Shown here: positions 3,884-38,582 of the stretch, in pieces
Numbering within the stretch: position 1 is the stretch's first letter
Layout: each line of letters begins with the position of its first letter
Assembly (NCBI GenBank): GCA_965223315.1
Contig: CBDCWD010000004.1
Coordinates: 875,759 to 939,758 of the forward strand
Direction: 5' to 3'
From: Nitrospirales bacterium
GTDB lineage: Bacteria; Nitrospirota; Nitrospiria; Nitrospirales; UBA8639
DNA length: 64,000 nucleotides
The notes under the pieces: model-generated
Seen by the model: the letters and a program-made list of their open reading frames with translations, nothing else
Databases searched by the model: none
What the model was told of the DNA's origin: nothing
Made by a program: the position numbers and the translations under genes

Positions 3884-3906
3884 CATGTACATAACCGGCA
3901 CAAGCC

Positions 3907-5826: not shown

Positions 5827-5828
5827 CG

Positions 5829-13360: not shown

Positions 13361-13650
13361 GATTGGATCTAAAGAAAGGGAGAACCCTCTCTACTTCTTT
13401 TCGGCAGGAACTGCTATTTGGTGAAGGAGGAAACTTTGAAAACGTCACTTGAAGGAACTTTTTAAAAATGATGAAAATTTAGAAATTCCAGTTGCACGGA
13501 GAGAAGTCATGAAGTCTCATGTAATTCCAGGGATTCAGAGTGCTCGTGAGTATTTTGGTGGGTGGAACGATTGTCATTCAGAGAGTGGCGAATCATGAAG
13601 ATATCAAGGGCCATATTTCGTCAGAAAGCTATTCACTATCAGCAGACATC

Positions 13651-13912
13651 GGGTCTGTTCAAAAAACCTGCCCTGAGCGTGTCGAAGGATCACAATGAAC
13701 CTATCGAAGGATGGTTCGACGGGCTCACCATGATCGTTCTCACTCATCCCGAACCGTATGATTTATCATCCTGAGTCGTTCGACAAGCTCACGATGCACT
13801 CGCAGAACGGCTGAAGGATACATCCTGAGCCTGTCGAAGGGTTTTCGTGCTCCTTACTTCTCACTTTTCACTGGTCTAGAGAACGCCGCTGGCGGCTTTT
13901 TTCAACAGACCC
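13651..13912. mobile_element. MITE-like element with terminal inverted repeats and an internal REP array
   Basis: Starts GGGTCTGTTCAAAAAA and ends TTTTTTCAACAGACCC (15/16 inverted match). The interior has CCTGAGC.TGTCGAAGG / GTTCGAC..GCTCAC units. Confidence 0.75.
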
Positions 13913-14590
13913 TTAGTTATTTTCGAAGGCTTGGTGGGTCGCAAAGACTTCCCCGGGATGGATCAACAACAGGCAATTGCCATCTACGGGATCTTGGTGA
14001 AAGAGCGCAAAGGCCAGGCAGAGCTGAGGAGTTGGTTCCGGGGAAAACTCTAAAAGTAGAGGAACATCGATTAAGGGCGTGGGCTCTTTAAGACTGACCA
14101 GGCGGAGTCGTACCGCAACCAGTGTTTCGCGTACGCGGGTGTGAATGTGTTGTTCGGTAAGATCTGGAGAAGAAGAAATGTATTGCTGCCACAAAGGATT
14201 GGTCAGGCCCACGCAAAAATCCAAGCCAACCGTTTGAGCTAAGGGAGTGACATCTTTAAGAATCCCGGATTGTACCGCCTCTCTTCGTAGCCGGACTGTA
14301 AGCCGTTTCAGGTCGGGCGGGATTTCTTCAGGATTGATCGAATCTGCAGGAGGTATTTCCACCAGATCTCCTGCTTCAGAGGCATTACTCACCTCCTCCG
14401 CAGCGGGCAATGTGGGTAGATGGGTATCCTCAGTCCCTGGAATTGCAGGAGGGTTTTTATCGAGTGCCTGAATGATCCCCGCGTAGACCGATTTGGCAGA
14501 ATCGGTCCAGCTTTCATCTTGTGGTAATCCACGAAAAGCAGCTTCTGAGGCTTTCTTTTCATCATGTGTCAATTGGCGTGGTGATGTCAT
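13913..14590 (-). CDS. Hypothetical two-domain protein (short N-terminal domain, acidic/Pro linker, DUF6573-like C-terminal domain)
   Basis: 225-aa ORF. RREAVQSGILKDVTPLAQTVG resembles the RAQAIxDGxLVDV motif, recalled from memory. Confidence 0.6.
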   Translation of the reverse strand: MTSPRQLTHDEKKASEAAFRGLPQDESWTDSAKSVYAGIIQALDKNPPAIPGTEDTHLPTLPAAEEVSNASEAGDLVEIPPADSINPEEIPPDLKRLTVRLRREAVQSGILKDVTPLAQTVGLDFCVGLTNPLWQQYISSSPDLTEQHIHTRVRETLVAVRLRLVSLKEPTPLIDVPLLLEFSPEPTPQLCLAFALFHQDPVDGNCLLLIHPGEVFATHQAFENN

Positions 14591-14841
14591 AACTACAAGA
14601 TAAGTTAATTTGCTAGAAAGTCAAGTATTTGCGAGGAATGCTCGAGAAGGTGAAGCAATGCAGTAGAACTTAGAGAGCGTGACTAATTTTCATTGTGCGA
14701 AAACGCACCCTGGTGGCAGAGCGAAATCGCTCTACATAGACTGTGAATCATATTCTTAGGCTATGAAAAATCATCGTCATTACTATAATTTTATTATATA
14801 TTTCAATATTTTATGATAAATTATTGCCATGAAGGTATTAT

Positions 14842-14857
14842 TGGAATGTCATTTGCA
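14842..14857 (+). promoter_or_regulatory. Sigma54 promoter candidate
   Basis: TGGAATGTCATTTGCA = GG-N10-GC, preceded by a very AT-rich tract (about 14760-14830). Confidence 0.6.
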
Positions 14858-14903
14858 TTACTTATCTTTCAAGTTTCAATCAATATTCGTCAAGGAGAAT
14901 ACA

Positions 14904-14975
14904 ATGGATCCTATTTTTGATTTAGCCATGATTGTCGTAGTTGGAATCATGGTGGCTTTTAACATCTACGGGTAA
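14904..14975 (+). CDS. Small hydrophobic peptide (23 aa)
   Basis: MDPIFDLAMIVVVGIMVAFNIYG; AAGGAG RBS 6 nt before ATG; directly downstream of the sigma54 motif. Confidence 0.6.
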   Translation: MDPIFDLAMIVVVGIMVAFNIYG

Positions 14976-15322
14976 TACGGTTTCTTCATTTCTCTTTTGA
15001 TCAGCAGAAGAGAATTGAAAAAGTAGTAGTATTCAGCATTTCCACCCCGTATTTTCCTCCCTGTTTTTCCTTTTCTCGCTTCGTTCCTCTGTTCATTTAA
15101 AGTAGTTCTACGTAATTAAAAATTCATAAAATCAAGCTTTTTAAGGGATTTTTTCCAAAATTTCTTGAGGTGGCCTGTTCCGTCCTGGTATACCTTTTTT
15201 CACAGCTCTAATTTTCAGTTTTTTAGAAATTGCCAGTCCTTTTGAGTGTTAATGGAAGTGTTGAATACTACCAAACACCAGAAGCAAATTTGCTGATGAT
15301 CATGTTTGATGCCAAAAGCTTC

Positions 15323-15412
15323 GGGGCGGTTCAAAAAAGTTCATCCAGTCCTGTCCTGAGACATTTCGAAGGGAAGGCGAGAACGCCGCTGGTGGCTTTT
15401 TTCAACAGCCCC
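15323..15412. mobile_element. Short copy (90 bp) of the same MITE-like family
   Basis: Left end GGGGCGGTTCAAAAAAG vs reverse complement of the right end GGGGCTGTTGAAAAAAG. Shares GAGAACGCCGCTGG(C/T)GGCTTTTTTCAACAG with 13880-13908. Confidence 0.7.
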
Positions 15413-15429
15413 TTAATGTCGAAATTATC

Positions 15430-15524
15430 GAGTGCCTGACTCTTACGTTGAAACCAGGGTCGGTATCAATGAAAGCCGGTTTCTGTTTCTGGAATCTATT
15501 CCAGTAACAAGGACCGGTTTTTTT
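15430..15524 (+). promoter_or_regulatory. Structured 5' leader ending in an intrinsic-terminator-like hairpin (attenuator/riboswitch candidate)
   Basis: Arms 15471-15495 and 15498-15522 pair at 23/25 positions on the + strand (4 G-U); T7 run at 15518-15524; 110 bp before the SulP ATG. Confidence 0.55.
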
Positions 15525-15633
15525 GTCCTGATTTGTTGCAATCAACAATGTGTCTCTGTCATGACTCACGCCATCGGTAGGCCGAGATCAATATAGCGGA
15601 CAAACATTCTGACTTACTTCCTCCCGTCTCATC

Positions 15634-17271
15634 ATGCCCCCTAGCGTAAAGGACATTCCTAGAGGCCAGATTTCCGAATTCCCGAAGCATTGGCAACCCG
15701 ATATGATTTCGGGGTTTCTGGTGTTCTTGATCGCTCTTCCGCTGTGCCTAGGCATTTCCCTGGCCTGTGGCTATCCTGCCATAGCGGGCATCTTTACCGC
15801 GATTATCGGTGGAGTATTGGCCACCTTTTTTAGTAATTCAGAGCTCACCATCAAAGGGCCCGCGGCGGGACTCATTGTGATCGCCCTAGGATGTGTCACG
15901 GAATTTGGGTTTACAGGTGGGGAAGACCCTGCTGCTGACCTTCAAGCGTATCGCTTGGCCCTTGGCGTTGGTGTCGCCGCTGGATTGATCCAAATTCTTT
16001 TTGGAATCTGTCGCGCGGGAATTCTGGGAGAGTTTTTCCCGACCTCGGCAGTGCATGGCCTGCTCACGGCTATTGGAGTCATCATTATCGCCAAACAATT
16101 TCCGGTGGCCATGGGGTTGAGCCCAACAGGTACACCGTTGGAACTCTTGGCCAACATTCCACATTTTATTTTGAACATGAATCCCCTGGTTGGCCTCATT
16201 GGCGTGGTGAGTCTTGTCATCATGTTTGGGTATCCGTTTGTCAAGAATCCTCGGCTGAAGGCCATACCCGCGCCGATGCTTGTGCTGTGTATTACGGTTC
16301 CTTTAGCAATGTGGTTTGATATTGGGCAAGAGCAGACGTATGCTTTCCTAGGACAAGACTATCCATTGGGGAAGAATTTTCTGGTCGCGGTTCCAGAGAA
16401 TATGTTTTACGCCCTGACCTTCCCTGACTTTTCCGGTTTGGCGACGAGTATAGGGATAAAGTACGTGATCATGTTTGCGTTGATCGGCAGTATCGAATCC
16501 CTTCTCAGCGCAAAAGCGATTGATGAAATTGATCCATGGAAAAGAAAAACCGATCATGATCGAGATATGTTAGCGGTGGGAGTTGGCAATACACTGGCCT
16601 CATTTGTGGGCGGGCTTCCAATGATCTCGGAAATTGTTCGAAGCAAAGCCAATATTGACAATGGCGCACGCACTCGATTTGCGAATATGTTTCATGGTTT
16701 GTTTTTGCTGGGGTTTGTAGCGCTTGTGCCGGGTCTGATCAACCAAATCCCGCTTGCTGCTCTGGGAGCCATGCTGGTCTTTACGGGATTTCGACTAGCC
16801 TCCCCGCAGGAATTTCTCCATATGTGGCAGGTCGGCCGTGAGCAGTTTGTGATTTTTGTCTCAACGGTCATTGGAGTCTTGTCGACGGATTTGCTGATGG
16901 GTATCGCAATTGGCATTGGTGTGAATTTTCTCGTGCATCTCAAAAACGGAGCGCCTCCGAGGTCACTCTTGAAAACACAAGTGACGGTTGAACCGCAGGA
17001 ACGGGATGGCGTGGTTGTCCGGGTCAGGGATTCGGCGATTTTTAGTACATGGATTGGCCTGAAGAAAACCTTGGAGCCCCTCATGACCGAATCACGTGTG
17101 GTTCTGGATTTATCAGAGACGTTTCTGGTGGATCACACAGTTATGGCCAAACTCCAAGATATGGAAAAGGCTTTTCAGGAGCATGGTTCGACTTTAGTGC
17201 TGACAGGACTAGAACAGCATCAGCGACTCTCCAGTTACCCCACTGCTGCAAGGAAAAAACCTCGAACATGA
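15634..17271 (+). CDS. SulP/SLC26 anion permease with STAS domain (second, divergent copy)
   Basis: DMISGFLVFLIALPLCLGIS, TIKGPAAGL and GGLPMISEIVRS motifs, typical of SulPs linked to carbonic anhydrase or DAB genes. Confidence 0.92.
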   Translation: MPPSVKDIPRGQISEFPKHWQPDMISGFLVFLIALPLCLGISLACGYPAIAGIFTAIIGGVLATFFSNSELTIKGPAAGLIVIALGCVTEFGFTGGEDPAADLQAYRLALGVGVAAGLIQILFGICRAGILGEFFPTSAVHGLLTAIGVIIIAKQFPVAMGLSPTGTPLELLANIPHFILNMNPLVGLIGVVSLVIMFGYPFVKNPRLKAIPAPMLVLCITVPLAMWFDIGQEQTYAFLGQDYPLGKNFLVAVPENMFYALTFPDFSGLATSIGIKYVIMFALIGSIESLLSAKAIDEIDPWKRKTDHDRDMLAVGVGNTLASFVGGLPMISEIVRSKANIDNGARTRFANMFHGLFLLGFVALVPGLINQIPLAALGAMLVFTGFRLASPQEFLHMWQVGREQFVIFVSTVIGVLSTDLLMGIAIGIGVNFLVHLKNGAPPRSLLKTQVTVEPQERDGVVVRVRDSAIFSTWIGLKKTLEPLMTESRVVLDLSETFLVDHTVMAKLQDMEKAFQEHGSTLVLTGLEQHQRLSSYPTAARKKPRT

Positions 17272-17302
17272 ACTACTGAAGAGTTCAAGGGGATCTGAAT
17301 CA

Positions 17303-20300
17303 GTGAGACAAGAAGTTTCGCCTTTGACTCAAGAAGAACGAACACTTCTGCACGATGTGATCGAAGCGGCCTGTGAGCCGATTGCACCGTTTTGGCCGAT
17401 GCGAACCATGGTGGCTCAGAATCCAATTCATGGTTTGGAATATCTCCCGTTCGATGAGGCTGTCCGGCAAGGAAAAGATCTGCTTGGAGGCAATGGATAT
17501 CTGTCAAATGAAGATTATCGGCGGTTGTATCGAGAGGGACGAATAACGTCCAACAGCATTCAACAAGCCTTAACCCATGTGGGTCCTCAGTCGCATACGC
17601 AAGATTCTATTCAGATCGGGGCGCAGCCAGTATCGTCTCAAGATATTTGGCGCTGGCATTTGGTGACTGGGTTTGAGGAGTTAGAGCCTGCTCTCTTGCA
17701 ATGGGAACTGAGTGGAGGCAGGGCAACCAAACAGTTTCGTTCAGATTTTCCTGCTGACTCTAAACAACGGATTGTCCAGCGCACCATCAAAGATTGTGAG
17801 CGATGTCGGGATTTTCCTGAAGAAGCCTATCTCACCAATCTGTGGAATGCGACCTTGAGAGCGTTAGGGCTGCATGAGTCTTCCTCAGAAAAAAATCATG
17901 GTCAAGAATCTTCATCAACTGTAGAACAAGAGAGCCGTGAGATACCTATTCACTTACCTGTTCAGCGAACGATGAGTGATTGGATTGAACGCTTGAGCGG
18001 TGTTCCGCTTGTCGAACAAATTAATAACCAGATGATCAAGTGGATTGCGGCTTTTGTTGACGAAGGATTGGCCGGATGGGAGATGCCACAAAAGCACAGA
18101 GGCTTTTTCCTCACGTGGCGAGAGCTTGTGCAATGGGATCACTCGGGCCATTTTCTCGGGATCTCTGATTTTCACCAAAAGGTCAGGGACCTATCTGATG
18201 ACCCGGAGGAGGTGATCGTTTCGTGCCTGCGCTGTTCGGGTGTCCCCCAAGCTGAATGGAAAGCCTATCTGTCGCGGGAGTTATCGCAATTGCCCGGATG
18301 GACCCGGTATATTCGATGGCTGGGAGAGCATCCCCGGTATCATGCTCAACGAAAGCAACCTATTGATGTGCGGCAATATTTGGCGGTTCGGCTGGTGTAT
18401 GAAGTGGAGCTCACTCAGGTAATCTGCCAAAGGGAATGGGGAATTGAAGGAACCGTCCCTGCATTGCAGGAATTTTGGGGAGAACGTGGTGGAGAGTACG
18501 AACACCCTATTGGGTTAGGCCGTTGTTCCGTCGATCCCATCACGCAGATGACATGTCGAGATGCTTGGCGCTTGTTTCATCTTGCTCAATGCTTAGAAGT
18601 TGCCCCCGCTGACATGCATGACCTTTCAAGGACAGACGCTCAGGTCTTATTGAGATGGCTTGATGCCTTTCCATCCGATTTGCACGGCCCAGTTTGGTTA
18701 GAGGCTTTGGAAGATTCCTTTCGCAAAGATATCCTGGGGAAACTCTCGCTCCATTGTCAGGGCGTGAAAGATGTCGATACGCGCCCGCAGGCCCAATTGG
18801 TGTTTTGTATCGATGTCCGCTCTGAGTCGTTCCGCCGTCATATCGAAGCACAAGGTCCTTACGAGACATTTGGCTTTGCGGGATTTTTTGGCATTCCCAT
18901 CAGTCACCAGGCCTTTGATAGCGAACAGCGGTCTGATTTATGCCCGGTATTGTTGACACCCAATCATGCTGTGAGAGAAGTCCCTCGATCTGAGGAAAAC
19001 GACTCTTTGCAGAGGTATTCTTCCGGTACTCGATGGTATCATCTTGGGCATCATCTCTTTCACGATCTGAAACATCATCCCATTGGTTCGATGATGGTCA
19101 TTGATGTCCTGGGTTTCTTTTTTAGTCTTGGGTTAGTCGGTAAAACGTTGCTTCAAAAAATATTTCGTGGAATCACGTCTACCATCGAAGATTGGTTCAC
19201 CCATCGTGTACGGACTCAGATCGCGGTTTCTGCCTCTTCGGACCCCACGCATCCGAAAATCGGAGAAGTGCATCCAGAAGGGATTCCCAGTGATCTGGCG
19301 CAAGGGTTTTCTTTGACGGAACAGGCGACGTTTATCGAAAACGGGTTACGGGCAATGGGGCTAACAAAAAATTATGCGCGTCTCGTCTGTCTTTGTGGCC
19401 ATGGAAGCGAGACGGATAACAATCCCTATTATGGCGCACTGGATTGCGGGGCTTGTGGGGGAGCGCCGGGGGATGCGAATGCGCGAGTTTTTGCCGCGAT
19501 GGCGAATTCACCTGACGTTCGCCGCGTTCTTGGAGAAAAAGGCCTGTCTATCCCCAGCGATACCTGGTTTCTTCCAGGGAAACATAATACGACGACGGAT
19601 CGTGTACAGTTTTACGATGTAGAAGATCTGCCGGATAGTCATCTAGAAGATTTACGTGTGTTGGAGAAGGATCTCAAAGAGGCCGGTGCGAACCAAGCCC
19701 TTGAGCGTTGTCATCGTCTTCCACATGCTCCCACACAAATTTCTCCAGAACATGCTTTGGCTCATGTGGAGGAGCGTAGTTGCGATTGGGCCAATACCCG
19801 GCCGGAATGGGGGCTTGCTGGCAATGCCGCGTTTTTAATCGGGCGACGCCGTCTCACGAAAGGGCTGGATCTGGGCGGGCGGGTCTTCTTGCATTCGTAT
19901 GATCCCATTGCGGACTCTGCGGGTGGCATCCTTGAGAAGATCATGACGGCTCCATTGATTGTAGGAGAGTGGATCAATACGGGATATTATTTTTCAGGAG
20001 CCGACCCATGGAAGTATGGAAGCGGCAGTAAGGTCTTGCACAATGTGGTGGGAGGTGTGGGAATGATGCTAGGAAGTCAAAGTGACTTACAAATGGGATT
20101 TCCTTTGCAGACCGTGAACGATGGAGACCGTCATTATCATGAGCCCATGCGTCTTCTTGCCATCATTGAACACACACCGTGTGTTATTTCGTCAATTATC
20201 CAAAAACATGGAATCCTTCAGCAGTTGTTTCATAATCAGTGGCTTCATCTTGTGGCGCTAGATCCTCATGCATATGAGTTTCATCAATATCATGCTGATG

Positions 20301-20332
20301 GGCGGTGGGAAAGGGTTTCTCCAACTGAGTAG
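17303..20332 (+). CDS. dabA: DabA (DUF2309) beta-carbonic-anhydrase-like subunit of an inorganic carbon pump
   Basis: IAPFWP..TMVAQNP N-terminus, FCIDVRSE (Cys/Asp), CGHGS (His), LDCGACGG (Cys), HNTTTD, RPEWGLAGNA and RVFLHSYD. All four Zn ligands are present. Confidence 0.95.
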   Translation: MRQEVSPLTQEERTLLHDVIEAACEPIAPFWPMRTMVAQNPIHGLEYLPFDEAVRQGKDLLGGNGYLSNEDYRRLYREGRITSNSIQQALTHVGPQSHTQDSIQIGAQPVSSQDIWRWHLVTGFEELEPALLQWELSGGRATKQFRSDFPADSKQRIVQRTIKDCERCRDFPEEAYLTNLWNATLRALGLHESSSEKNHGQESSSTVEQESREIPIHLPVQRTMSDWIERLSGVPLVEQINNQMIKWIAAFVDEGLAGWEMPQKHRGFFLTWRELVQWDHSGHFLGISDFHQKVRDLSDDPEEVIVSCLRCSGVPQAEWKAYLSRELSQLPGWTRYIRWLGEHPRYHAQRKQPIDVRQYLAVRLVYEVELTQVICQREWGIEGTVPALQEFWGERGGEYEHPIGLGRCSVDPITQMTCRDAWRLFHLAQCLEVAPADMHDLSRTDAQVLLRWLDAFPSDLHGPVWLEALEDSFRKDILGKLSLHCQGVKDVDTRPQAQLVFCIDVRSESFRRHIEAQGPYETFGFAGFFGIPISHQAFDSEQRSDLCPVLLTPNHAVREVPRSEENDSLQRYSSGTRWYHLGHHLFHDLKHHPIGSMMVIDVLGFFFSLGLVGKTLLQKIFRGITSTIEDWFTHRVRTQIAVSASSDPTHPKIGEVHPEGIPSDLAQGFSLTEQATFIENGLRAMGLTKNYARLVCLCGHGSETDNNPYYGALDCGACGGAPGDANARVFAAMANSPDVRRVLGEKGLSIPSDTWFLPGKHNTTTDRVQFYDVEDLPDSHLEDLRVLEKDLKEAGANQALERCHRLPHAPTQISPEHALAHVEERSCDWANTRPEWGLAGNAAFLIGRRRLTKGLDLGGRVFLHSYDPIADSAGGILEKIMTAPLIVGEWINTGYYFSGADPWKYGSGSKVLHNVVGGVGMMLGSQSDLQMGFPLQTVNDGDRHYHEPMRLLAIIEHTPCVISSIIQKHGILQQLFHNQWLHLVALDPHAYEFHQYHADGRWERVSPTE

Positions 20333-20374
20333 ACATGCAGGGAAGTGTTGAATAAATCTGAAGGTGCGATCTAA

Positions 20375-20902
20375 ATGACCAAAAACGTTGTTGGGCATGG
20401 GGCGCGGCCACGGCCGATTTCATCACAATTTTTGATCTTAAAGGCCACGGCACTATTCGTGTTGTGGATGATGTTATCGGCCCGTTTCGATTGGATCCAT
20501 CTTGGATTGGGCTTAGTCCTGTCTTTCGCGGTTGCCTGGATTAATTCCGGCCATTCTCCCTTTGTTCCCAAGTTTCGATTATGGGGCAATATCCTGCTCT
20601 ATCTTCCCTGGCTTTTTGTGAAAATCGTACAAAGTAGTCTTCACCTCTCAAAGCTGATTCTTCATCCCGCGCTTCCCATAAATCCTCGGCTAATCAAAGT
20701 TGAGACGAAGTTGGGGCATCATGCAGCCGTGGTGCTGCTTGGCAATTCCATTACCTTAACTCCCGGAACGATTACCGCAGAAGTGGATCGTAATACTCTC
20801 ATCGTGCATGCCATGGATGAAGTTGCCGCCGAAGATGTCACAAGCGAGCGGATTGAATCGAAAATTGCTGAAATTTTTAAGAATGAAGAGCCTGATTTGT
20901 GA
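20375..20902 (+). CDS. mrpE: Mrp/Mnh Na+/H+ antiporter subunit E
   Basis: LGNSITLTPGTITAEV and LIVHAMD motifs. Confidence 0.92.
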   Translation: MTKNVVGHGARPRPISSQFLILKATALFVLWMMLSARFDWIHLGLGLVLSFAVAWINSGHSPFVPKFRLWGNILLYLPWLFVKIVQSSLHLSKLILHPALPINPRLIKVETKLGHHAAVVLLGNSITLTPGTITAEVDRNTLIVHAMDEVAAEDVTSERIESKIAEIFKNEEPDL

Positions 20903-21165
20903 AAATATTTCTTCTCGGTGTCTTATTACTCTTAGCCCTCCTCATTGGTGTCTATCTTTATCGTGTGCTTCAGGGCCCTACAATTTTTGATCGCGTCCTG
21001 GGTCTCAATGGCATTTCCACCAAGGCGATCATTTTACTGATTGTGATGGGTATGTATTTTGAGCGAGTCGACATGTTTGTCGATATCTCGACGGGATATG
21101 CTCTCTTAAATCTAGTGGGAGCTCTTGCCGTCGCCAAGTTTCTGGAACAAAGAGGACTGCCGTAA
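20899..21165 (+). CDS. mrpF: Mrp/Mnh subunit F
   Basis: YRVLQGPTIFDRVL motif; overlaps the mrpE stop. Confidence 0.9.
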   Translation: MKIFLLGVLLLLALLIGVYLYRVLQGPTIFDRVLGLNGISTKAIILLIVMGMYFERVDMFVDISTGYALLNLVGALAVAKFLEQRGLP

Positions 21166-21166
21166 C

Positions 21167-21466
21167 ATGGAAGTGCTTGCCATAGGTTGTATTCTCGCCG
21201 GGCTATTTTTTTTGATTGTTGCGGCAATCGGCGTGATTCGCCTGCCCGATGTGTTTAGTCGGTCTCATGCGGTGTCACTTACAGACTCGTTGGGGGCCTT
21301 TTTGATGCTCGTGGGTGTGGCGCTTCATGAGGGCTTGAGCGCGAGTATGCTGAAAATCATAGCGGTCCTGGCACTACTGTACATCCAAAATCCGGTCATT
21401 GCCCATGCGACTGTTCGCGCAGCGCTTCGTGCTGGCTTGAAGCCCTGGAAAAAGGAGCATTCATGA
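21167..21466 (+). CDS. mrpG: Mrp/Mnh subunit G
   Basis: IGVIRLPDVFSRSHA and NPVIAHA motifs. Start set to ATG 21167, 1 bp after the mrpF stop. Confidence 0.9.
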   Translation: MEVLAIGCILAGLFFLIVAAIGVIRLPDVFSRSHAVSLTDSLGAFLMLVGVALHEGLSASMLKIIAVLALLYIQNPVIAHATVRAALRAGLKPWKKEHS

Positions 21467-21993
21467 TATTTTCCTATGAAATTCCCCTCCTGGTTTTACT
21501 GCTCGTGACAGCAGCCGGCGCGATCTTAGTCAAGGATCTGATGAGCGCCATCTTATTGTTGGGTTGCTACAGTTTTTTCCTTGCCTTGGTGTGGGCGTGG
21601 CTGGGTGCGGTTGATGTGGCGTTTGTCGAAGCCGTCGTTGGCGCTGGTTTAGCCACCGTGCTTTTCTTACTCACCCTATTTGGAACCGCACCAAAAGACA
21701 ATCGTCTCAGGCGGCCTCCGCCTCCGATGGCGGCACTGATTGCCCTTCCGCTTCTGGGAGTTCTGTTGCTCTATGCCGCAAACGATCTTCCAGAGTTTGG
21801 AGATCCACGTTCCCCGGCCAGTGTGCATATTTCACCGACATATCTCGAACAGAGTTATCCAGATTCTCATACGCCAAATGTCGTGACATCGGTCCTGATG
21901 GATTACCGGTCCCTTGATACCATGGTGGAAACGGTGGTGATTTTTACCGCAGGCATTGCTTGCGCACTATTGTTGCGGAGGCAACCCTCATGA
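21463..21993 (+). CDS. Mrp subunit: DUF4040 (MrpA C-terminal piece) fused to the MrpB N-terminal piece (MbhD/E-like)
   Basis: LGAVDVAFVEAVVGAG and TPNVVTSVLMDYRSLDTMVE motifs. Confidence 0.85.
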   Translation: MIFSYEIPLLVLLLVTAAGAILVKDLMSAILLLGCYSFFLALVWAWLGAVDVAFVEAVVGAGLATVLFLLTLFGTAPKDNRLRRPPPPMAALIALPLLGVLLLYAANDLPEFGDPRSPASVHISPTYLEQSYPDSHTPNVVTSVLMDYRSLDTMVETVVIFTAGIACALLLRRQPS

Positions 21994-22442
21994 TTCGCCC
22001 TCACGATAGTGTTATCGTGCAGACCTTAGGACGGTTTCTGATTCCGGTGATCCAGATTTTTGGTTTGTATGTGTTGTTTTTTGGCCAATATGGCCCTGGG
22101 GGAGGATTTGTTGGAGGGGTGATATTAGGCACCGGCATGATCTTATCGGTGCTCATTTTTGGCCACGATGCTTCCCGGAGCCAGATTGCGAAAAAAGTGT
22201 TGCACGGCGATGGAGTCGGCATGTTGATTTATGCCGGCGTTGGCGGATTGTGCATGATTGGCGGCGGGGAATTTCTCAACTATGCCAATTTGGAGATTCC
22301 GGGGCTTGAGACGGCTTCACGCCGATCTTTGGGAATTGTGTTGACGCAAATTGGCGTGGCTGTGGACGTGGCTGTGACGGCGGTGTCCATTGTCTTCAGT
22401 CTTTCTGCCGAAGAAATTATTGAGGATTCAATGAATGGGTGA
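21990..22442 (+). CDS. mrpB: Mrp/Mnh subunit B (MbhF-like)
   Basis: GQYGPGGGFVGG motif; ATGA overlap with the previous gene. Confidence 0.88.
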   Translation: MIRPHDSVIVQTLGRFLIPVIQIFGLYVLFFGQYGPGGGFVGGVILGTGMILSVLIFGHDASRSQIAKKVLHGDGVGMLIYAGVGGLCMIGGGEFLNYANLEIPGLETASRRSLGIVLTQIGVAVDVAVTAVSIVFSLSAEEIIEDSMNG

Positions 22443-22812
22443 TCTGTTTTCTGCCGTCTTTCAGCGCCCCAACTTTTTGACGTTTGTCATTATCTTCCTG
22501 TGGGGCTTTTATATCATGGTGACCCGGTACAACCTCGTCAAGAAATTGGTCGGATTGTATCTTGTCCAGACCAGCGTGATTTTTTTCCTGGTCTCTATTA
22601 GTGCGAAAAAGCACTCGACAGTCCCGGTCCTGCTGTCGACAACTGAACCTGTGCGAGCCATGAACTATGCGAATCCGTTGCCACATGTGCTGACGTTGAC
22701 AGCTATTGTGGTGGGTGTCGCCACGCTGGGTGTGGCATTGGCGTTGTGTGCGGCTATTTATCGACGATACGGCAGTCTTGATGAGGAAGAGATTTTAAAA
22801 AAACTAGAATGA
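22435..22812 (+). CDS. mrpC: Mrp/Mnh subunit C (NuoK-like)
   Basis: NLVKKLVGL and NPLPHVLTLTAIVVG motifs. Confidence 0.92.
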   Translation: MGDLFSAVFQRPNFLTFVIIFLWGFYIMVTRYNLVKKLVGLYLVQTSVIFFLVSISAKKHSTVPVLLSTTEPVRAMNYANPLPHVLTLTAIVVGVATLGVALALCAAIYRRYGSLDEEEILKKLE

Positions 22813-24278
22813 GGCATCATTTCCCAGCCCTGCTCTTTCTGTTCCCTTTGTTTGCCGCGATCGCCATGCCGGTTGTCTGTTTGAGGCACCGGCAGTGGAG
22901 CCGGCCCATCGCTCTCGCGGTGCTTGGCGCCATGGTTGTGGTCTCTATTCTGAATCTGAATAGCGTCATTAATGATGGAGAAGTGCGATATGCCTTCAGT
23001 GGCTGGATTGCACCATTAGGCATTGAGTGGGTCGCGGATGGATTGGCGAGTGTCATTATGGTGACGTTGAGTACGTTGGGTTTGCTGGCGTTGGTATTTA
23101 CCGGTCCCACTTCACCAAAAGATTTGGGGGGACGGATCGTTCATTATCATATCTTGATCTTGTTGCTTATTTCCGCGCTTACCGGAATCGTGTTTGCGGG
23201 AGATCTCTTTAATCTATTTGTGTTTTTGGAAGTCGCGGCCATATCCAGTTATGCGCTGATTGGTGTGGCCGGCGGGCGAGCGCTGTTTGCGGCGTTTCGC
23301 TACCTTGTGCTGGGGACGCTTGGGGCGTCTCTCTACTTACTGGGCGTGAGTTATTTCTACGCAGCCAGTGGCACGCTCAATATGGCAGATATGGCAGAGA
23401 AGCTTCCCCAACTCTTGACTTCCAAAGCGGTTGTGGGCGGGCTTCTGTTTATGTTCATTGGGTTGGGTATCAAGATGGCGTTGGTGCCATTTCATGCATG
23501 GTTGCCGGATGCCTATACCTATGCCCCCGAATCCATCTCTCCTATCTTAGCGGCATTAGTGACCAAAGTGGCGTTGTTAGGGTGGGTCCGCATTATTTAC
23601 TGGGTCTTGGGGGCTAAGGCCATTGTGTACGACATTCCCGTGCTCGTGCTCGTGGGGGTACTTGGCACTCTGGCAGCGGTCATTGGGGCGGTTCTGGCCT
23701 TGTCGCAGCGGGATATAAAGATGATGTTTGCCTATGGAGGAATTTCCCATATTGGCATCATTCTTATTGGCGTGAGTCAAGGGAATCATACGGGATTTGT
23801 CGGGGGTATTTTTTATTTACTAAACGATGCCGTGATGCAAGCGGCCTTGTTTTTTTTAGCAGGGGTCGCGATCTGCCAGTATGGCGTTCGGACTGTCGAG
23901 GATCTTGGAAAGATTGGGAAGCGCGCGCCTTGGTTTACGGGGGGCTTGGTCGTGGTGGCGTTGGGCATGATCGGCCTTCCTCCAACTGGGGGCTTTTTTG
24001 GAAAATGGTATATCATTCTCGGAGCGCTTGAAGCCAATAATTATATTGCGGTCGCCGCGGTTTTACTTTCAACTCTTTTGACGCTTGCCTATTTCGTCAG
24101 ACTATTTGAGGCGCTCTTTCGTCCGCTGGCCTCTGACTCGGAAACCGCATTCGGGGATATTCCGTTTCCGTTTAAACTGAGTGTGGGAGTAACGTCGGCG
24201 GCCGTCATGATCTTGGGACTGTTCAGCGACCCGATTGTTCAGTTTTTGTTGAATCAGGCTCTGCCACCAGGTATCTAA
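22809..24278 (+). CDS. mrpD: Mrp subunit D-type antiporter-like subunit
   Basis: GDLFNLFVFLE, KMALVPFHAWLPDAY, LVTKVA and GLPPTGGFFGKW motifs. Confidence 0.9.
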   Translation: MRHHFPALLFLFPLFAAIAMPVVCLRHRQWSRPIALAVLGAMVVVSILNLNSVINDGEVRYAFSGWIAPLGIEWVADGLASVIMVTLSTLGLLALVFTGPTSPKDLGGRIVHYHILILLLISALTGIVFAGDLFNLFVFLEVAAISSYALIGVAGGRALFAAFRYLVLGTLGASLYLLGVSYFYAASGTLNMADMAEKLPQLLTSKAVVGGLLFMFIGLGIKMALVPFHAWLPDAYTYAPESISPILAALVTKVALLGWVRIIYWVLGAKAIVYDIPVLVLVGVLGTLAAVIGAVLALSQRDIKMMFAYGGISHIGIILIGVSQGNHTGFVGGIFYLLNDAVMQAALFFLAGVAICQYGVRTVEDLGKIGKRAPWFTGGLVVVALGMIGLPPTGGFFGKWYIILGALEANNYIAVAAVLLSTLLTLAYFVRLFEALFRPLASDSETAFGDIPFPFKLSVGVTSAAVMILGLFSDPIVQFLLNQALPPGI

Positions 24279-24286
24279 CCAAGGCC

Positions 24287-26386
24287 ATGGCGATCTTTGT
24301 TCTCATCCCTTTGCTTCCTCTCATGGCTTCGCTTGTCCTTGTGCTTGGAGGACGACGATGGGGCGAGCACAGCCACCGAATTGGCATTCCTGCCATTGGT
24401 CTGTCTTTTGGTTTGTCGGTGTTTGCCTTTCTTGAGGTTCTGCGCCACGGGCCTTTCTCGCTCTCTCTGTATCGTTTCTTTCAGTCCGGGGCGTTGACCA
24501 TTAATTTCAGCCTTTATGTGGATCAACTCACGGTTCTCCTTTTGCTCTTGGTCACAGGTGTGAGCGCTCTTGTGCATGTCTATTCGTCTCGATACATGAT
24601 CGGGGACCCACGATACAATCGGTTCTTTGCGGTCATCGCATTGTTTACCTTTTCCATGGTGCTACTTGTCATGAGTGGCAATCTCTTGATGTTGCTCGTC
24701 AGTTGGGAGGTGATGGGTATCTGCTCATATCTCTTAATCTCCCATGCCGCACAAAGACCCTCGGCCGGACGGGCAGCGACCAAAGCATTCTTGGTGAATG
24801 CGGTGGCGGATGTGGGGTTAAGTTTTGGAATTATCTTGACCTTTTTTACATTCGGCACGCTCGACATTCAGACCATTCTCGCCCAGGCTGACAGCATGCA
24901 ACATCAGACGGTCAATATCATGGGATGGATCGGGGGCAATCTTGCTGTGAATCCCGTGACGTGGATTCCTTTCTTTCTGTTCTTAGGAGCCATGGGCAAG
25001 TCAGCTCAAATGCCCTTTCATGTATGGTTGCCATTTGCCATGGAAGCCCCTACTCCAGTCTCGGCGTTAATTCACGCGGCCACGATGGTGAATGCCGGTC
25101 CGTTCCTGCTCGTGCGGCTGAGCCCCTTGCTCGTCCTTTCTCCGTTCACCATGACATTCATTGCGGTCATTGGAGCCAGCACGGCGCTGTTTGCGGGTCT
25201 TGTTTCATTGACGCAGTCGGACATCAAAAAGATCTTGGCGTATTCCACGATTAGCCAAATTGGTTTCATGATCATGACCTGCGGTTTAGGTGCGTTTGTT
25301 GTGACGATCTTTCATCTCCTTGCTCATGGCTGTTATAAAGCGTTCTTTTTTCTGTCCACTGGTAATGCGCTCCGGTCGGTGGAGCCGGGTCGTGTCCATA
25401 GAGGAAATCATGAGCATCATAGTCCGCAGGGCATGGGAATGTTGTATGGGGGCGCGCTGGCCTTAGCGTTGATTCCTCCGATTATTCTGTTTTCAGGGGC
25501 ATATGAATACTTGTGGGGGGTAACGGGATTTGCCTCTGCCACAATGGGATTTCGCGTCATTGGTCTAATCACTGTCTTTGTGGCTTCTCTGTATCTTTTC
25601 CGAAGTGTCACGTCGCTATTTGTTTATGGTCCGAAGACGTATTGGCCGGTTTCCGGCCAATTGGGATCACAGACGCATTCCATCCGGCCGCAGTTTGTGA
25701 ATGGGGCGATTTTGACTGGGCTTTTCGTCGCCACTCTTGTCATCGGGGCGATGTTGACCCTGTTTTGGACGTGGTTTGCCAACTTCTTAGCTCCAGCGTT
25801 GATCTCACCCACGGCGGTGTTCCATGAAGGAACGGATAAGGCGGGCCTCTCGATATGGATGCTCATGGCTATTGGAATGGCGATTGCCGGATGGGCCTAT
25901 GCCTACTGGCAGGTTCAATCAGGCTCGCAGGTCGCAACAGCAGGCAGTAGGAACAAAAAGTTATACGTCCTCTTCTGGAATAAATGGTATTTTGATGAAT
26001 TCTATGATGTCTATGTGGTGAATCCCACCATTCGGTTTGCCGAATGGCTTTGGCGCTTCGTTGATGTGAATGTGATCGATGCATTCATACATTCCATCGC
26101 GACCTACTCCATTCTTTTGGCCCAGTGGCTCTGGCGAATCGTGGATATCAAAGGCATTGATCGAATGGTGATGGGTATCGGACGGCAGAGTGTTGGAATG
26201 GGCAGTTGGCTGTGGCAAGTGGTGGATATTCGATGGCTGGAACAGAGAGTCAGTCAAATGGGCAGACAAGCGGATACGGCAGGGCAACTCTTACAAGAGG
26301 TTGAACCTCGTACCCTCCAACACCAACTACTTGTCATGATATTTTGGCTGGTCTTGGCAACTGGGCTATTATATCTTTTGGTGTAA
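24287..26386 (+). CDS. NuoL/MrpA/DabB-family antiporter-like subunit with an extended lateral helix
   Basis: SWEVMG, GKSAQMPFHVWLPFAMEAPTPVSALIHAAT and KKILAYSTISQIG motifs; three 27-aa repeats in the C-terminal amphipathic helix. Confidence 0.9.
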   Translation: MAIFVLIPLLPLMASLVLVLGGRRWGEHSHRIGIPAIGLSFGLSVFAFLEVLRHGPFSLSLYRFFQSGALTINFSLYVDQLTVLLLLLVTGVSALVHVYSSRYMIGDPRYNRFFAVIALFTFSMVLLVMSGNLLMLLVSWEVMGICSYLLISHAAQRPSAGRAATKAFLVNAVADVGLSFGIILTFFTFGTLDIQTILAQADSMQHQTVNIMGWIGGNLAVNPVTWIPFFLFLGAMGKSAQMPFHVWLPFAMEAPTPVSALIHAATMVNAGPFLLVRLSPLLVLSPFTMTFIAVIGASTALFAGLVSLTQSDIKKILAYSTISQIGFMIMTCGLGAFVVTIFHLLAHGCYKAFFFLSTGNALRSVEPGRVHRGNHEHHSPQGMGMLYGGALALALIPPIILFSGAYEYLWGVTGFASATMGFRVIGLITVFVASLYLFRSVTSLFVYGPKTYWPVSGQLGSQTHSIRPQFVNGAILTGLFVATLVIGAMLTLFWTWFANFLAPALISPTAVFHEGTDKAGLSIWMLMAIGMAIAGWAYAYWQVQSGSQVATAGSRNKKLYVLFWNKWYFDEFYDVYVVNPTIRFAEWLWRFVDVNVIDAFIHSIATYSILLAQWLWRIVDIKGIDRMVMGIGRQSVGMGSWLWQVVDIRWLEQRVSQMGRQADTAGQLLQEVEPRTLQHQLLVMIFWLVLATGLLYLLV

Positions 26387-26412
26387 TCAACTTCCTGGAT
26401 AGGGGCCTGCTG

Positions 26413-27918
26413 ATGAGCATATTCACTGATCATATTATTAGTTGGATGATTGCGGTTCCCTTTTTAGGAATCGTTGCCCTTGCATTTCTCCGCGATGAAG
26501 AATGGATTCGCCGAATGGCTTTCGCCACAACGATGGCGGAGTTTCTGCTCTCGCTGATCTTGTGGAGGAACTTCGATTTCACTCAACAGGGTATGCAATT
26601 CGTTGAGCGTATGGAATGGATGCCTACCTTCAATATTCAGTATGCCGTTGGTGTAGATGGGATCAGCATCCTGTTAGTCATCCTCACCGCTCTTCTGTGT
26701 CCACTTTGCGTTCTGTGTTCGTGGAGTGCCATTACCACGCGGGTGCGAGCCTATTTGTCGTTGATTTTACTGGTGGAAGGCGCGATGATCGTCGTGTTTA
26801 CAGCCTTAGATCTTTTCCTGTTTTTCATGTTGTGGGAACTCACCATGATTCCCATGTATTTCATGATCATTCTTTGGGGAGGGCCCAATCGCATCACGGC
26901 GGGAATTAAATTTGTCTTGTACAGCTTGACAGGCAGTTTATTGTTGCTCGTGGGAATTCTTGGCCTCTACTTGGAAGGCGGACATACCTACGATCTGTTG
27001 GTTCTCAGCGAACAAACCTATTCCTCGAAGACACAATTCTGGCTATTCCTGGCGCTCTTTTTGGCGTTTGCCATCAAAATGCCCATGGTGCCTTTTCACA
27101 CCTGGTTGCCAGACGCACATTCCGAGGCCCCGACTGCTGGCAGCGTGATTTTAGCGGGAGTGCTACTAAAAATGGGGGGCTATGGATTCTTGCGCTTTTG
27201 CTTGCCGATGTTTCCCGAAGCCTCAGCCAAGTTTGCTCCGTATATATTATGGCTTTCGGTTATCGCCATTGTCTATGGCGGCTACATGGCGTTAGCGCAG
27301 ATTGACCTCAAAAAACTTGTGGCATACTCGTCGGTTTCACATATGGGATTTGTCACCCTTGGGATTTTTGTCTTTAACAGTCAGGGCATCCAAGGGGCCA
27401 TCTTGCAAATGTTCAATCACGGCATTACAACCGCCGCGCTCTTTATTTCAGTTGGTCAGCTGTACGACCGCACCCATAGCCGGGTTATCAGTGACTATGG
27501 CGGCTTGCATAAACCCATGCCGAAATTTGTGGCGTTTTTTTTCTTGTTCTCAGTTGCGGCATTTGGCCTGCCAGGCACCTGTAATTTCATTGGCGAGTTT
27601 TTGGTGCTGGTCGGGACGTCCTATGTGAATTTCGCCATGGTCCTGATTTCCATGGGAGGTATTGTCTTAGCGGCGGCCTATATGCTGTGGATGCTGCAAC
27701 GGTTGGCGTTGGGTGAGCCTTCCACGAAGGTGGCGGCAGTCCTTCCTGATCTCACCACTCGCGAGTTGGCCTCGGTGATTCCTTTGGCCATTGTTGTCCT
27801 GTGGATCGGGTTATATCCTGGCCCTCTTATGGAAATGATGGATGCAAGCGTGACGCACCTCGTTCAGCAGGTCGCTGCATACACATCCCCTCTTCCTGAA
27901 AACACGGTCCTGCGTTAA
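26413..27918 (+). CDS. NuoM-type antiporter-like subunit
   Basis: VGVDGIS, WELTMIPMY, KMPMVPFHTWLPDAH, LLKMGGYG, QMFNHG and NFIGEF are canonical NuoM motifs. Start set to ATG 26413. Confidence 0.92.
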   Translation: MSIFTDHIISWMIAVPFLGIVALAFLRDEEWIRRMAFATTMAEFLLSLILWRNFDFTQQGMQFVERMEWMPTFNIQYAVGVDGISILLVILTALLCPLCVLCSWSAITTRVRAYLSLILLVEGAMIVVFTALDLFLFFMLWELTMIPMYFMIILWGGPNRITAGIKFVLYSLTGSLLLLVGILGLYLEGGHTYDLLVLSEQTYSSKTQFWLFLALFLAFAIKMPMVPFHTWLPDAHSEAPTAGSVILAGVLLKMGGYGFLRFCLPMFPEASAKFAPYILWLSVIAIVYGGYMALAQIDLKKLVAYSSVSHMGFVTLGIFVFNSQGIQGAILQMFNHGITTAALFISVGQLYDRTHSRVISDYGGLHKPMPKFVAFFFLFSVAAFGLPGTCNFIGEFLVLVGTSYVNFAMVLISMGGIVLAAAYMLWMLQRLALGEPSTKVAAVLPDLTTRELASVIPLAIVVLWIGLYPGPLMEMMDASVTHLVQQVAAYTSPLPENTVLR

Positions 27919-29994: not shown

Positions 29995-31143
29995 ATGAAC
30001 ACGACGAAATGTATAGGTGCCCTGGTCCTTATTGTATGGATGTTTGGGGGGTGTGTGAGCCAACAGGCTCATGAACGGGCTATGGAAGAATTGGAAATGG
30101 CCAGCCAAAGTTCGGCTCAAGAAGTAGAGCGGTTGCAACGTATTGTGGAAGAACAGCAGTCCCAAGTCGTTCAACTGGAGGAGAATACGCAAGAGCTGAA
30201 GCGGGAGGTAGAAACGAAAGAGCAAGCCGTGGTCCAACTCCAGGAAGAAAATGTGGATTTAGTGGATGCTGTCAAAGTTCAAGAACAAGAAAAAGAACAG
30301 CAACTGGAAGCGGTGAAAGCCGAGTTGGAGAAACTCTATTCCGAGATTGCAGGCCTGCAATCGTTGACGGGGGTTGGTTCACTTTCCCGAGAGAGTCTGG
30401 AAGGGAGTGACCTGAATGATTTGGGTGGCATGGCTAGAGCCTTTCAGCAGGTTCGGGATAGCCTGAAGTCGCAAATTGACCATTTTTCTCAATTACAAAA
30501 GGACAATCAAGCCTTAGAGCAAAACCTTGTACAGCTAGAAGAACGTCTGAAAAATGTTGAGCGGCTGAAAAAGGAATTGGAAGAAGTGCGGGCAGCTCGT
30601 GCGGCGCAAGAGTCTCAATTGGCTCAAGTCAAACAAGAAGTCAATACTGTGAGCCGAGAAATTGATCGCATTACGCAAGCCTTAGAAGAAAAATTTGGGA
30701 AGAGTTTGGTCGTGACCCAACATCAGGATCGATTGGTCCTCACGATGCTAGGCCAAATCTTGTTTGCGTCGGGGGAAGCGCAACTCACCCCTCTGGGATT
30801 AGATATTATGAAACAGGTCGGGGAAGTTTTGGCCACCTTGCCAAATAAAAATATTCAAGTCGAAGGTCATACCGATAGCAACCCTATTTATGGACGACTC
30901 CAACAAAAATTTCCGACGAATTGGGAACTATCAACGGCTCGAGCGACGACCGTGCTTCGGTATTTGATTGAGCAAACCGGAATGGATCCTAAAGATTTTG
31001 CGGCGACTGGTTATGCTGATACACGGCCAGTGGTGGCGAACGACTCTGAAGAGGGGCGGGCTCAAAATCGACGTGTCGAAATTGTGCTATATCCAGAGAA
31101 AATTGTTGAAGAAAATAAAAAAATGGCAACGGTTGCCCAATAA
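29995..31143 (+). CDS. OmpA/MotB-domain lipoprotein with a long coiled coil
   Basis: FGGC lipobox, long heptad region, then VEGHTD, NWELSTARA, GYADTRP and NRRVEI peptidoglycan-binding motifs. Confidence 0.9.
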   Translation: MNTTKCIGALVLIVWMFGGCVSQQAHERAMEELEMASQSSAQEVERLQRIVEEQQSQVVQLEENTQELKREVETKEQAVVQLQEENVDLVDAVKVQEQEKEQQLEAVKAELEKLYSEIAGLQSLTGVGSLSRESLEGSDLNDLGGMARAFQQVRDSLKSQIDHFSQLQKDNQALEQNLVQLEERLKNVERLKKELEEVRAARAAQESQLAQVKQEVNTVSREIDRITQALEEKFGKSLVVTQHQDRLVLTMLGQILFASGEAQLTPLGLDIMKQVGEVLATLPNKNIQVEGHTDSNPIYGRLQQKFPTNWELSTARATTVLRYLIEQTGMDPKDFAATGYADTRPVVANDSEEGRAQNRRVEIVLYPEKIVEENKKMATVAQ

Positions 31144-38553: not shown

Positions 38554-38582
38554 CGAATGGGAACGACAGATGTAAGGGAACG

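Follow-up and report, generated by a model that had tools for sequence, protein, structure and literature searches.

A cluster of eleven genes in a 64,000-nucleotide stretch of DNA from a Nitrospirales bacterium (GenBank assembly GCA_965223315.1, contig CBDCWD010000004.1, positions 875,759 to 939,758 of the forward strand; hereafter, the window, to which all coordinates refer unless a locus is named) probably encodes, as far as can be judged from sequence, a SulP-family anion transporter together with a ten-subunit, redox-free membrane machine, denoted here Mrp-DAB, in which ion flow would drive the hydration of CO2 at a DabA-type head. The cluster (15634-27918, +) is best described as a new architecture, with a DAB head joined to a membrane arm of the Mrp/complex-I type, and not as a canonical DAB pump, an Mrp antiporter, NDH-1MS, complex I or MBH. 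The physical assembly of Mrp-DAB, its stoichiometry, the ion species and the direction of their flow, and its physiological role are inferred. That DabA works with a multi-subunit arm had been suggested in a first-pass annotation of the window, and this suggestion is now supported in part, by conserved synteny, by a predicted membrane finger of DabA carrying the acidic residue D601, by the loss of a charged pair in the twelfth transmembrane helix (TM12) of the NuoL-type subunit, which nevertheless keeps its ion relay, and by the co-evolution of these two proteins.

DabA and the subunits of the membrane arm

The eleven open reading frames (ORFs) of the cluster lie on the same strand, with gaps of at most 42 nucleotides (nt) or overlaps of 4-8 nt between them, and are assigned to subunits by Pfam. 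A gene for a SulP-family anion transporter (15634-17271; Sulfate_transp and STAS, E = 4.6e-57) is followed by that for DabA (17303-20332), a CO2 hydratase subunit of the vectorial, beta-carbonic-anhydrase-like kind that has 1009 amino acids (aa) and is matched over its full length by PF10070 (E = 6e-264). The small subunits come next, namely, MrpE (MNHE; 20375-20902; PF01899, E = 1.7e-33), MrpF (20899-21165; PF04066), MrpG (21125-21466; PF03334), a fused MbhD and MbhE protein of 176 aa that is the DUF4040-type equivalent of the C-terminal domain of MrpA (21463-21993; PF13244 and PF20501), MrpB (MnhB; 21960-22442; PF04039) and the NuoK-like MrpC (22435-22812; Oxidored_q2, PF00420). The cluster ends with genes for an MrpD-type subunit of 489 aa (22809-24278; Proton_antipo_M), a NuoL-type subunit of 699 aa (24287-26386; Proton_antipo_N and Proton_antipo_M), whose gene lies directly 3' of mrpD across an 8-nt gap, and a NuoM-type subunit of 524 aa (26344-27918; Oxidored_q5_N and Proton_antipo_M); taken together, these are three antiporter-like subunits, the same number as in complex I. 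The listed starts of MrpG, MrpB and the NuoM-type subunit are probably too far upstream, and the ATG codons at 21167, 21990 and 26413, respectively, fit better.

These ORFs and Pfam assignments agree with the first-pass annotation as to the number, packing, orientation and families of the genes, and its statement that redox subunits and carboxysome genes are lacking likewise holds: among the ORFs of at least 220 aa in the whole 64-kb window, there is no match to NuoB/C/D/H/I, hydrogenase, RuBisCO or carboxysome families. The cluster itself contains neither NuoH, NuoA, NuoN or peripheral complex I subunits nor a dedicated dabB.

The DabA protein is clearly homologous to DabA2 of Halothiobacillus neapolitanus (PDB 9rd0_A, E = 2.9e-119) and appears to be catalytically competent. 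The four zinc ligands identified at first reading, C502 (codon 18806-18808), D504 (18812-18814), H700 (19400-19402) and C715 (19445-19447), align with C351, D353, H524 and C539 of DabA2 and are invariant in 66 orthologues; the coupling motif CDWANTRPEWGL (CDWxxxRPEWGL) is conserved as well, with motif and ligands invariant in 52-66 orthologues. A Foldseek search with the AlphaFold2 (AF2) model of DabA, against a structure library older than the DAB2 entry, yielded a single, weak match, to CsoSCA (E = 1.9e-3).

Between the two pairs of ligands, DabA apparently keeps the membrane-inserting finger, or elbow, a predicted helix-loop-helix at aa 566-632 (18998-19198) delineated by hydropathy and by the AF2 model, which places helices, with low confidence, at 566-590 and 593-615. 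By hydropathy, the protein has only one hydrophobic segment, aa 594-612, and this segment lies within the hairpin. It contains the invariant D601 (codon 19103-19105), putatively a buried acid. In alignments, D601 shares a column with the Glu in the finger of canonical DabA1-like proteins, the genes for which adjoin the cluster in some of these genomes. In the cryo-electron microscopy structure of DAB2, the finger-like helix-loop-helix of DabA2 inserts among TM11-14 of DabB2, where its essential Glu, E444, stands in for K399 and D400 of NuoL TM12b, and DabB2 no longer has the Glu that NuoL carries in TM5 as part of its ion-pair relay (PMC13144422).

The proposed docking partner of DabA is, judging by its sequence, the NuoL-type subunit. 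Compared with PDB sequences, this protein scores 275 bits with Nad5/NuoL, 145 with DabB2, 130 with MrpA and 110 with NdhF3, and it passes TIGR01974, as the NuoM-type subunit passes TIGR01972 (618 bits), both under the equivalog cut-offs. In TM12, it has F402-S-G-A-Y-E407 (25490-25507) where the NuoL proteins of Escherichia coli, Thermus thermophilus and plants have the universal S-K-D, and no alignment of these few residues brings a Lys into this position; the FSGAYE sequence is kept in at least 95% of 60 orthologues. The subunit retains E141 (TM5), D175, K238 (TM7) and H343, H347 and K351 (TM11), and its homology to NuoL, strong as far as TM11, becomes weak thereafter, a pattern also reported for DabB2. 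The C-terminal ∼135 aa (25979-26383) are predicted to form a long lateral-helix region that ends in a TM helix; this stretch is roughly double the size of the corresponding part of E. coli NuoL, and the 566-aa canonical DabB has nothing equivalent. Within the lateral region (aa 587-647, 26045-26230), there are three conserved WLWxxxD repeats with a spacing of 27 residues, ∼40 Å if helical. This pattern was not seen in E. coli NuoL and could stem from contacts made at regular intervals along the arm. Loss of the TM12 Lys and Asp combined with retention of the relay, the lateral helix and the anchor is what would be expected of a subunit that receives the DabA finger and yet remains linked to neighbouring antiporter-like subunits. 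The possibility that this is merely a divergent DabB was rejected on the strength of the scores, the length, the TM5 Glu and the lateral helix.

The other two antiporter-like subunits have the canonical residues in place. In the NuoM-type protein (431 bits with Nad4/NuoM, 252 with NdhD3 and 111 with MrpD), E165, K245, K276 and E418 are invariant, as are E141, K222, K253 and K399 in the MrpD-type protein, whose best PDB matches are MBS 6u8y_H, MrpD and MbhH, at 165-185 bits. Among the small subunits, MrpF, in which D31 is invariant and R32 is conserved in 99% of the sequences, has its nearest solved structures in the MrpF-type subunits of MBS and MBH (6u8y_B and 6cfw_B). The MbhD/E protein aligns with residues ∼605-800 of MrpA (7d3u, 7qru and 6z16) and passes NF009159. 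MrpE is matched by 971 database clusters (E ≤ 1e-5); the best 120 matches listed for MrpE and for the NuoL-type subunit are all orthologues, with at least 67% identity. The arm is, thus, a chimera of an MBH/Mrp-type small-subunit module, MrpD and two complex-I-type subunits.

Conservation, co-evolution and genomic neighbourhood

The linkage of dabA to the arm genes, first noticed in the window alone, is conserved in several phyla. In a sample of one genome per species, 80 loci with close relatives of DabA (48-79% identity) were collected and all eleven window proteins were mapped onto them. The Mrp-type DabA is present in 79 loci, 9 of which have no sequence 3' of dabA, leaving 70 informative ones. 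In 69 of these 70, the nine membrane genes come after dabA in an unchanged order: all nine are found in 56 loci, all nine with mrpC split in one locus, and the order holds up to the end of the contig or locus in 13. The membrane genes are missing from a sole decayed locus (L074), in which the dabA frame is broken and htrA is present. By record title, the loci come from ∼45 Nitrospirota, 29 Nitrospinota, three Acidobacteriota (L055, L060 and L076, one labelled to phylum only and two Bryobacterales), one 'Deltaproteobacteria' metagenome-assembled genome (MAG; L050), one gammaproteobacterial MAG (Rariloculaceae; L069) and one unclassified source. In the loci from non-nitrifiers, the block from SulP to NuoM is very compact, which suggests transfer as a unit. 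Among cultured organisms, Nitrospina gracilis holds the cluster in the form of a helix-turn-helix regulator gene followed by those for DabA and MrpE through NuoM, with no SulP; in Nitrospira marina, the cluster is present judging by the order of locus tags; and N. watsonii has an MrpE orthologue.

The association of dabA with the Mrp genes persists despite inserted genes. A gene for an HtrA/DegP-type protease (Trypsin_2 and two PDZ domains) separates dabA from mrpE in one Nitrospirales subclade (L021, L035, L041, L047, L048, L051, L070 and L078). A separate, canonical DAB1-like operon, with genes for DabB (566 aa), a membrane protein of 378 aa that matches no Pfam family, a DabA1-like protein (1082 aa) and PII, adjoins or interrupts the cluster in L010 (positions 13038-19664 of that locus, -), L054 and L075, and lies in tandem upstream of dabA in L011, L036 and L062, so that these organisms have two different DabA systems side by side. 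Directly upstream of dabA and divergent from it, 33 Nitrospirales loci carry a gene of the MpsC family (PF10057, E = 1.2e-34; for example, 9528-10085, -, in L002); in staphylococci, mpsC is the third gene of mpsABC, a DAB homologue. The MpsC-family gene is absent from the window, where SulP and DabA are separated by 31 nt.

The SulP gene is more loosely associated. It is located 5' of dabA in most of the Nitrospirales loci and also in the acidobacterial and proteobacterial ones, and is absent from most of the Nitrospinaceae loci, so that SulP is best regarded as an optional companion of the machine formed by DabA and the arm. The first-pass annotation had it adding bicarbonate uptake, for which the case is weak given this distribution and a score of 112 bits, against a cut-off of 880, with the BicA equivalog model; the protein reaches none of the NCBIfam cut-offs for BicA, DauA and sulP. 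It may still be a bicarbonate importer.

Mirror-tree analysis of pairwise distances, performed on the 42 loci with all ten proteins, pairs DabA with the NuoL-type subunit (r = 0.81, bootstrap 0.70-0.89) despite the seven genes between them. The next-best partner of DabA is MrpE (r = 0.59), the small Mrp subunits yield values of 0.13-0.43, and the NuoL-type subunit is the top partner in 99.4% of the bootstraps. A sub-group of Nitrospirales and Nitrospina MAGs (L002, L034, L052 and L078) is instructive in this respect: its Mrp block is only ∼0.5 identical, compared with ∼0.8 among the other loci, whereas DabA (0.72 versus 0.69) and the NuoL-type subunit (0.62 versus 0.66) are not unusually divergent, which points to a co-inherited pair kept on two Mrp lineages.

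A further gene might belong to the cluster. The ORF at 13913-14590 (-) encodes a conserved protein of 225 aa that has homologues in 31 other loci and is a possible accessory gene in Nitrospirales; it matches no Pfam or NCBIfam family, and two of the homologues reach the DUF6573 threshold. The homologues are divergent and upstream of SulP in 16 of the 31 loci and on the strand of the cluster in the other 15, nearly always directly after nuoM; in L074, where the Mrp genes are lost, the homologue comes after the HtrA gene. This ORF is a candidate for a twelfth cluster gene, an assembly factor or a regulator.

The genes flanking the cluster encode TPR proteins and are convergent or divergent. Scans of the locus for promoters and terminators gave results at the level of shuffled sequence, Rfam detected no regulatory RNA, and no RNA-seq runs containing the locus were found, the runs that hold it appearing to be DNA metagenomes. 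Just downstream, there is a gene for an OmpA/MotB-like protein that contains a long coiled coil (29995-31143, +) and, 3.4 kb from the cluster, a gene for an NhaB Na+/H+ antiporter (31303-32898, -), a neighbourhood likewise reported for Candidatus Nitrospira alkalitolerans and N. marina. Elsewhere in the window, a gene for a second SulP and STAS transporter (620 aa) is followed by those for a histidine kinase of the CHASE3/PAS type and for a sigma-54-dependent response regulator (1661-7217, +), which may constitute a regulated anion-uptake unit. A dense block of signalling genes (35666-52691, -) encodes several hybrid histidine kinases (PAS/GAF/CHASE8/Hpt), HD-GYP-type response regulators, a FIST-domain protein and a TonB-dependent receptor. 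An element resembling miniature inverted-repeat transposable elements or repetitive extragenic palindromes, whose ends, GGGTCTGTTCAAAAAACCTGCC ... GGCGGCTTTTTTCAACAGACCC, are inverted and which contains repeats of CCTGAGCCTGTCGAAGG, occurs at 13649-13915 and 15321-15415; its word depth of ∼48,000 in the metagenome runs holding the genome, compared with ∼400 in the flanking DNA, identifies it as a member of a very high-copy repeat family.

A proposed mechanism and its alternatives

In the proposed mechanism, the amphipathic finger hairpin of DabA, with D601 buried in the membrane, would insert into the NuoL-type subunit, which appears to have given up its own TM12 Lys and Asp, as in the canonical DabA-DabB plug. 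The relay of TM5 Glu and TM7 Lys, the long lateral helix and the C-terminal anchor would tie this subunit to the NuoM-type and MrpD-type subunits and to the Mrp/MBH-type small-subunit cation module, presumably made up of the MrpA C-terminal domain and MrpB, C, E, F and G. Downhill ion flow through the arm would then drive, or render irreversible, the reaction CO2 + H2O -> HCO3- + H+ at DabA, with protons passing through up to three antiporter-like channels and possibly being exchanged against Na+ in the Mrp module. CO2 diffusing into the cell would be trapped as cytoplasmic bicarbonate, and the number of ions per turnover could exceed that of a two-subunit DAB. Such a device would suit carboxysome-free autotrophs of the reductive tricarboxylic acid (rTCA) cycle, which require CO2 as well as HCO3-, in seawater that is poor in CO2, rich in Na+ and slightly alkaline. 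The strongest version of the proposal, that all ten subunits form a single particle in which DabA is mechanically and electrostatically coupled to the three antiporter-like subunits and the Mrp Na+ module, with several H+ or Na+ spent per CO2, is advanced tentatively and stands slightly below an even chance.

Several observations weigh against this picture or blunt the evidence for it. Overall, the NuoL-type subunit scores as a NuoL and not as a DabB, and it lacks an Arg equivalent to R175 of NuoL. Because the space between dabA and mrpE can be taken up by genes for an HtrA protease or a helicase, or by a canonical DabB-x-DabA-PII operon in inverted orientation, neither co-translation nor strict unity of the operon is required. 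The correlation of distances between DabA and the NuoL-type subunit is supportive and not decisive, being confounded by shared phylogeny and by differences in protein evolution rates, and the NuoM-type subunit tracks the Mrp block (r = 0.92) and not the NuoL-type subunit, which fits a single complex without proving it. The AF2 models (predicted local distance difference test score of 52.8 for the NuoL-type subunit and 67.6 for DabA) are too poor for a structural argument because the alignments are shallow (66-87% identity). As to Na+ coupling, DAB2 of H. neapolitanus is Na+-independent; a case for the use of Na+ has been made for MpsAB of Staphylococcus aureus (PMC13144422). Finally, the proteome of an N. 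marina culture contained NhaB and no detectable Mrp, NuoL or NuoM subunit (Bayer 2021).

A different, though unlikely, reading of the same genes is that they encode two co-regulated machines, a DAB1-like pump composed of DabA and the NuoL-type subunit, perhaps with the NuoM-type subunit as DabC, and a separate MBH-style Mrp Na+/H+ antiporter that recycles Na+ for SulP. The premise of the first-pass annotation that characterized DAB pumps consist of DabA and a single DabB is out of date: DAB1 is a heterotrimer of DabA, DabB and DabC, with DabC in the position of NuoM. Moreover, 'clade C' ybcC operons with NuoL, NuoM and SulP have been described with no mention of Mrp (COGNAT 2017), insertions between dabA and mrpE are tolerated, and the Mrp block is evolutionarily exchangeable relative to the pair of DabA and the NuoL-type subunit. 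Against this reading, the known Mrp antiporters require the NuoL-like N-terminal domain of MrpA. Here, MrpA is separately represented only by its C-terminal domain, and with no other MrpA N-terminal domain in the cluster, this part could be played only by the product of the NuoL-type gene, which begins 8 nt after mrpD. In a trimer, furthermore, the lateral-helix region and anchor of the NuoL-type subunit would lack support, and the putative DabC follows the Mrp block instead of DabA and the NuoL-type subunit in the distance analysis. The nearly universal linkage and the movement of the block across phyla as a unit also speak for a single machine.

Mrp-DAB could also serve ion or pH homeostasis, with CO2 hydration supplying cytoplasmic H+ for acidification at alkaline pH or powering Na+ extrusion. 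An exergonic YbcC reaction driving ion export has, indeed, been proposed (COGNAT 2017), S. aureus MpsAB is linked to Na+ and membrane potential (PMC13144422), and the lineages in question are haloalkaline or marine and have nhaB nearby. Nevertheless, the free energy of CO2 hydration is small at ambient CO2, the characterized DABs are sensitive to carbonyl cyanide m-chlorophenylhydrazone and thus consume membrane energy rather than make it, and the distribution is centred on obligate rTCA autotrophs, often with SulP in the same locus, all of which renders such a function improbable.

Least probable of the three is an ordinary Mrp-type Na+/H+ antiporter for salt or alkali tolerance accompanied by a DabA that is no more than a neighbour in the genome, being a cytoplasmic carbonic anhydrase, free or loosely attached, or else a regulator. 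This is how the published annotations of N. gracilis and Ca. N. alkalitolerans present the membrane genes, nhaB lies 3.4 kb downstream in the window, and a 2026 survey saw such Nitrospira DabA genes as having no membrane partner (PMC13147460). A membrane finger with an invariant D601 would, however, make no sense in a free enzyme, other cytoplasmic subunits of the DabA type are inactive as carbonic anhydrases without the membrane subunit (PMC13147460), the NuoL-type subunit lacks the TM12 Lys and Asp needed for an autonomous channel, and DabA and this subunit co-evolve. Chance clustering was rejected given the linkage in 69 of the 70 informative loci, and membership in a complex I or hydrogenase operon because there are no such genes within the 64-kb window.

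Mrp-DAB in relation to known systems

Nitrospina and marine Nitrospira are the main nitrite oxidizers of the ocean and important fixers of carbon in the dark. The genome papers on these organisms list only SulP/BicA and soluble carbonic anhydrases. If the proposal is correct, Mrp-DAB would be the first example of an arm of the complex-I/Mrp type that carries a hydratase head, and it would be the chief means of CO2 capture in the dominant oceanic nitrite oxidizers. It would also offer a natural experiment on how complex-I-like machines couple events over long distances, since the lateral helix and the relay of Glu and Lys residues would drive, or be driven by, a simple, reversible and easily assayed step in place of quinone chemistry, and as a CO2 pump of higher gear, possibly coupled to Na+, it could be of use in the engineering of carbon-concentrating mechanisms. 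The interest of the system is high because it is widespread in globally important nitrifiers and testable both in E. coli and in the cultured hosts N. gracilis, N. watsonii and N. marina.

Parts of the locus have been noticed before. The N. gracilis genes were described as an 'eight subunit Mnh-type antiporter' (Luecker 2013), and those of N. marina were filed under 'ion exchange' and 'alternative complex I' (Bayer 2021). The ybcC operons with NuoL, NuoM and SulP were surmised to encode a new energy-converting complex whose chemistry was unknown (COGNAT 2017). In Ca. N. alkalitolerans, the locus was presented, beside nhaB, bicA and motB, as a group 3 Mrp antiporter to which two NuoL/NuoM-like subunits are added (Daebeler 2020; PMC7784846), so that, on the question of novelty that the first-pass annotation had left aside, the locus is known as an antiporter, whereas DabA goes unmentioned there. 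In the literature open to searching, which excludes subscription-only articles and so leaves room for an earlier description, no paper was found that links DabA, DUF2309, YbcC or PF10070 to an Mrp-type cluster, and both 2026 papers on DAB structures are silent on DabA-Mrp assemblies. According to the 2026 survey of rTCA autotrophs (PMC13147460), the Nitrospira DabA genes 'lack a companion gene with transmembrane helices'; the locus type described here may explain such DabA genes 'without a membrane partner', the cases in the survey being N. moscoviensis and N. tepida.

Among the known systems, DAB, with its relatives DAC and MpsAB, is the closest in the head. Mrp-DAB shares with DAB1 and DAB2 (PDB 9rd0) the zinc site, the RPEWGL motif, a finger that apparently carries a buried acid, a partner of the NuoL fold without the TM12 Lys and Asp and, in many loci, an MpsC-family gene beside dabA. 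It differs in that the partner scores as NuoL (275 versus 145 bits), keeps the TM5 Glu that DabB2 has lost, has the long lateral helix and the anchor, and is encoded seven genes away from dabA, with eight further membrane subunits encoded between and after the two. The canonical DabA1-like proteins are only 32-36% identical to the window DabA, which is missing their long post-finger arm. By the criterion of the survey (PMC13147460), a DabB-clade PF00361 subunit of ∼550 aa in the same operon, there is no such partner in the cluster, where the PF00361 genes start five genes (2.5 kb) after dabA, and the cluster is, therefore, not a member of the canonical DAB family.

With the Mrp (CPA3) antiporters, Mrp-DAB has in common the joint presence of the families MrpA (both domains), B, C, D, E, F and G. 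The differences are the split of MrpA into the NuoL-type and MbhD/E-type proteins, the extra NuoM-type subunit and DabA at the head of the cluster. The NuoL-like domain of MrpA has an intact TM12 Lys, which the NuoL-type subunit lacks, in addition to scoring just 130 bits with MrpA. The 'group 3 Mrp' locus of Ca. N. alkalitolerans (PMC7784846) is of the same type as the one described here and, like it, has nhaB and an OmpA/MotB gene nearby.

The first-pass annotation also likened the system to a redox-free analogue of cyanobacterial NDH-1MS, and this comparison stands as a functional analogy and fails as homology. The likeness to NDH-1MS and NDH-1MS' (CupA/CupB on NdhF3/NdhD3) is one of concept, a zinc-containing CO2-hydrating head on distal subunits of the NuoL/NuoM type in a long antiporter-like arm and vectorial hydration. 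In Mrp-DAB, the energy would come from an ion gradient instead of electron flow. The window encodes no CupA and no NuoH/B/C/D/I; the NuoL-type subunit scores 150 with the NdhF3 family model (TIGR01960), the cut-off of which is 588.7, and the NuoM-type subunit is closer to NuoM than to NdhD3 (431 versus 252 bits). Respiratory complex I resembles Mrp-DAB in the presence of the NuoL and NuoM types and differs in having NuoH, NuoA, NuoN and the peripheral arm, none of which is encoded in the cluster.

A parallel to the arm is found in the MBH, MBS and MBX complexes of Thermococcales, which share the principle of a catalytic head on an Mrp-derived arm and to the chains of which (MBS and MBH) the small and MrpD-like subunits are closest in the PDB. 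From mrpE to mrpD, the genes (mrpE-F-G-(MbhD/E)-B-C-D) follow the order of mbhA-H. Compared with these complexes, Mrp-DAB would carry a non-redox hydratase head, has no NuoH-like MbhM and no NiFe or FeS components, and gains two subunits of the complex-I type.

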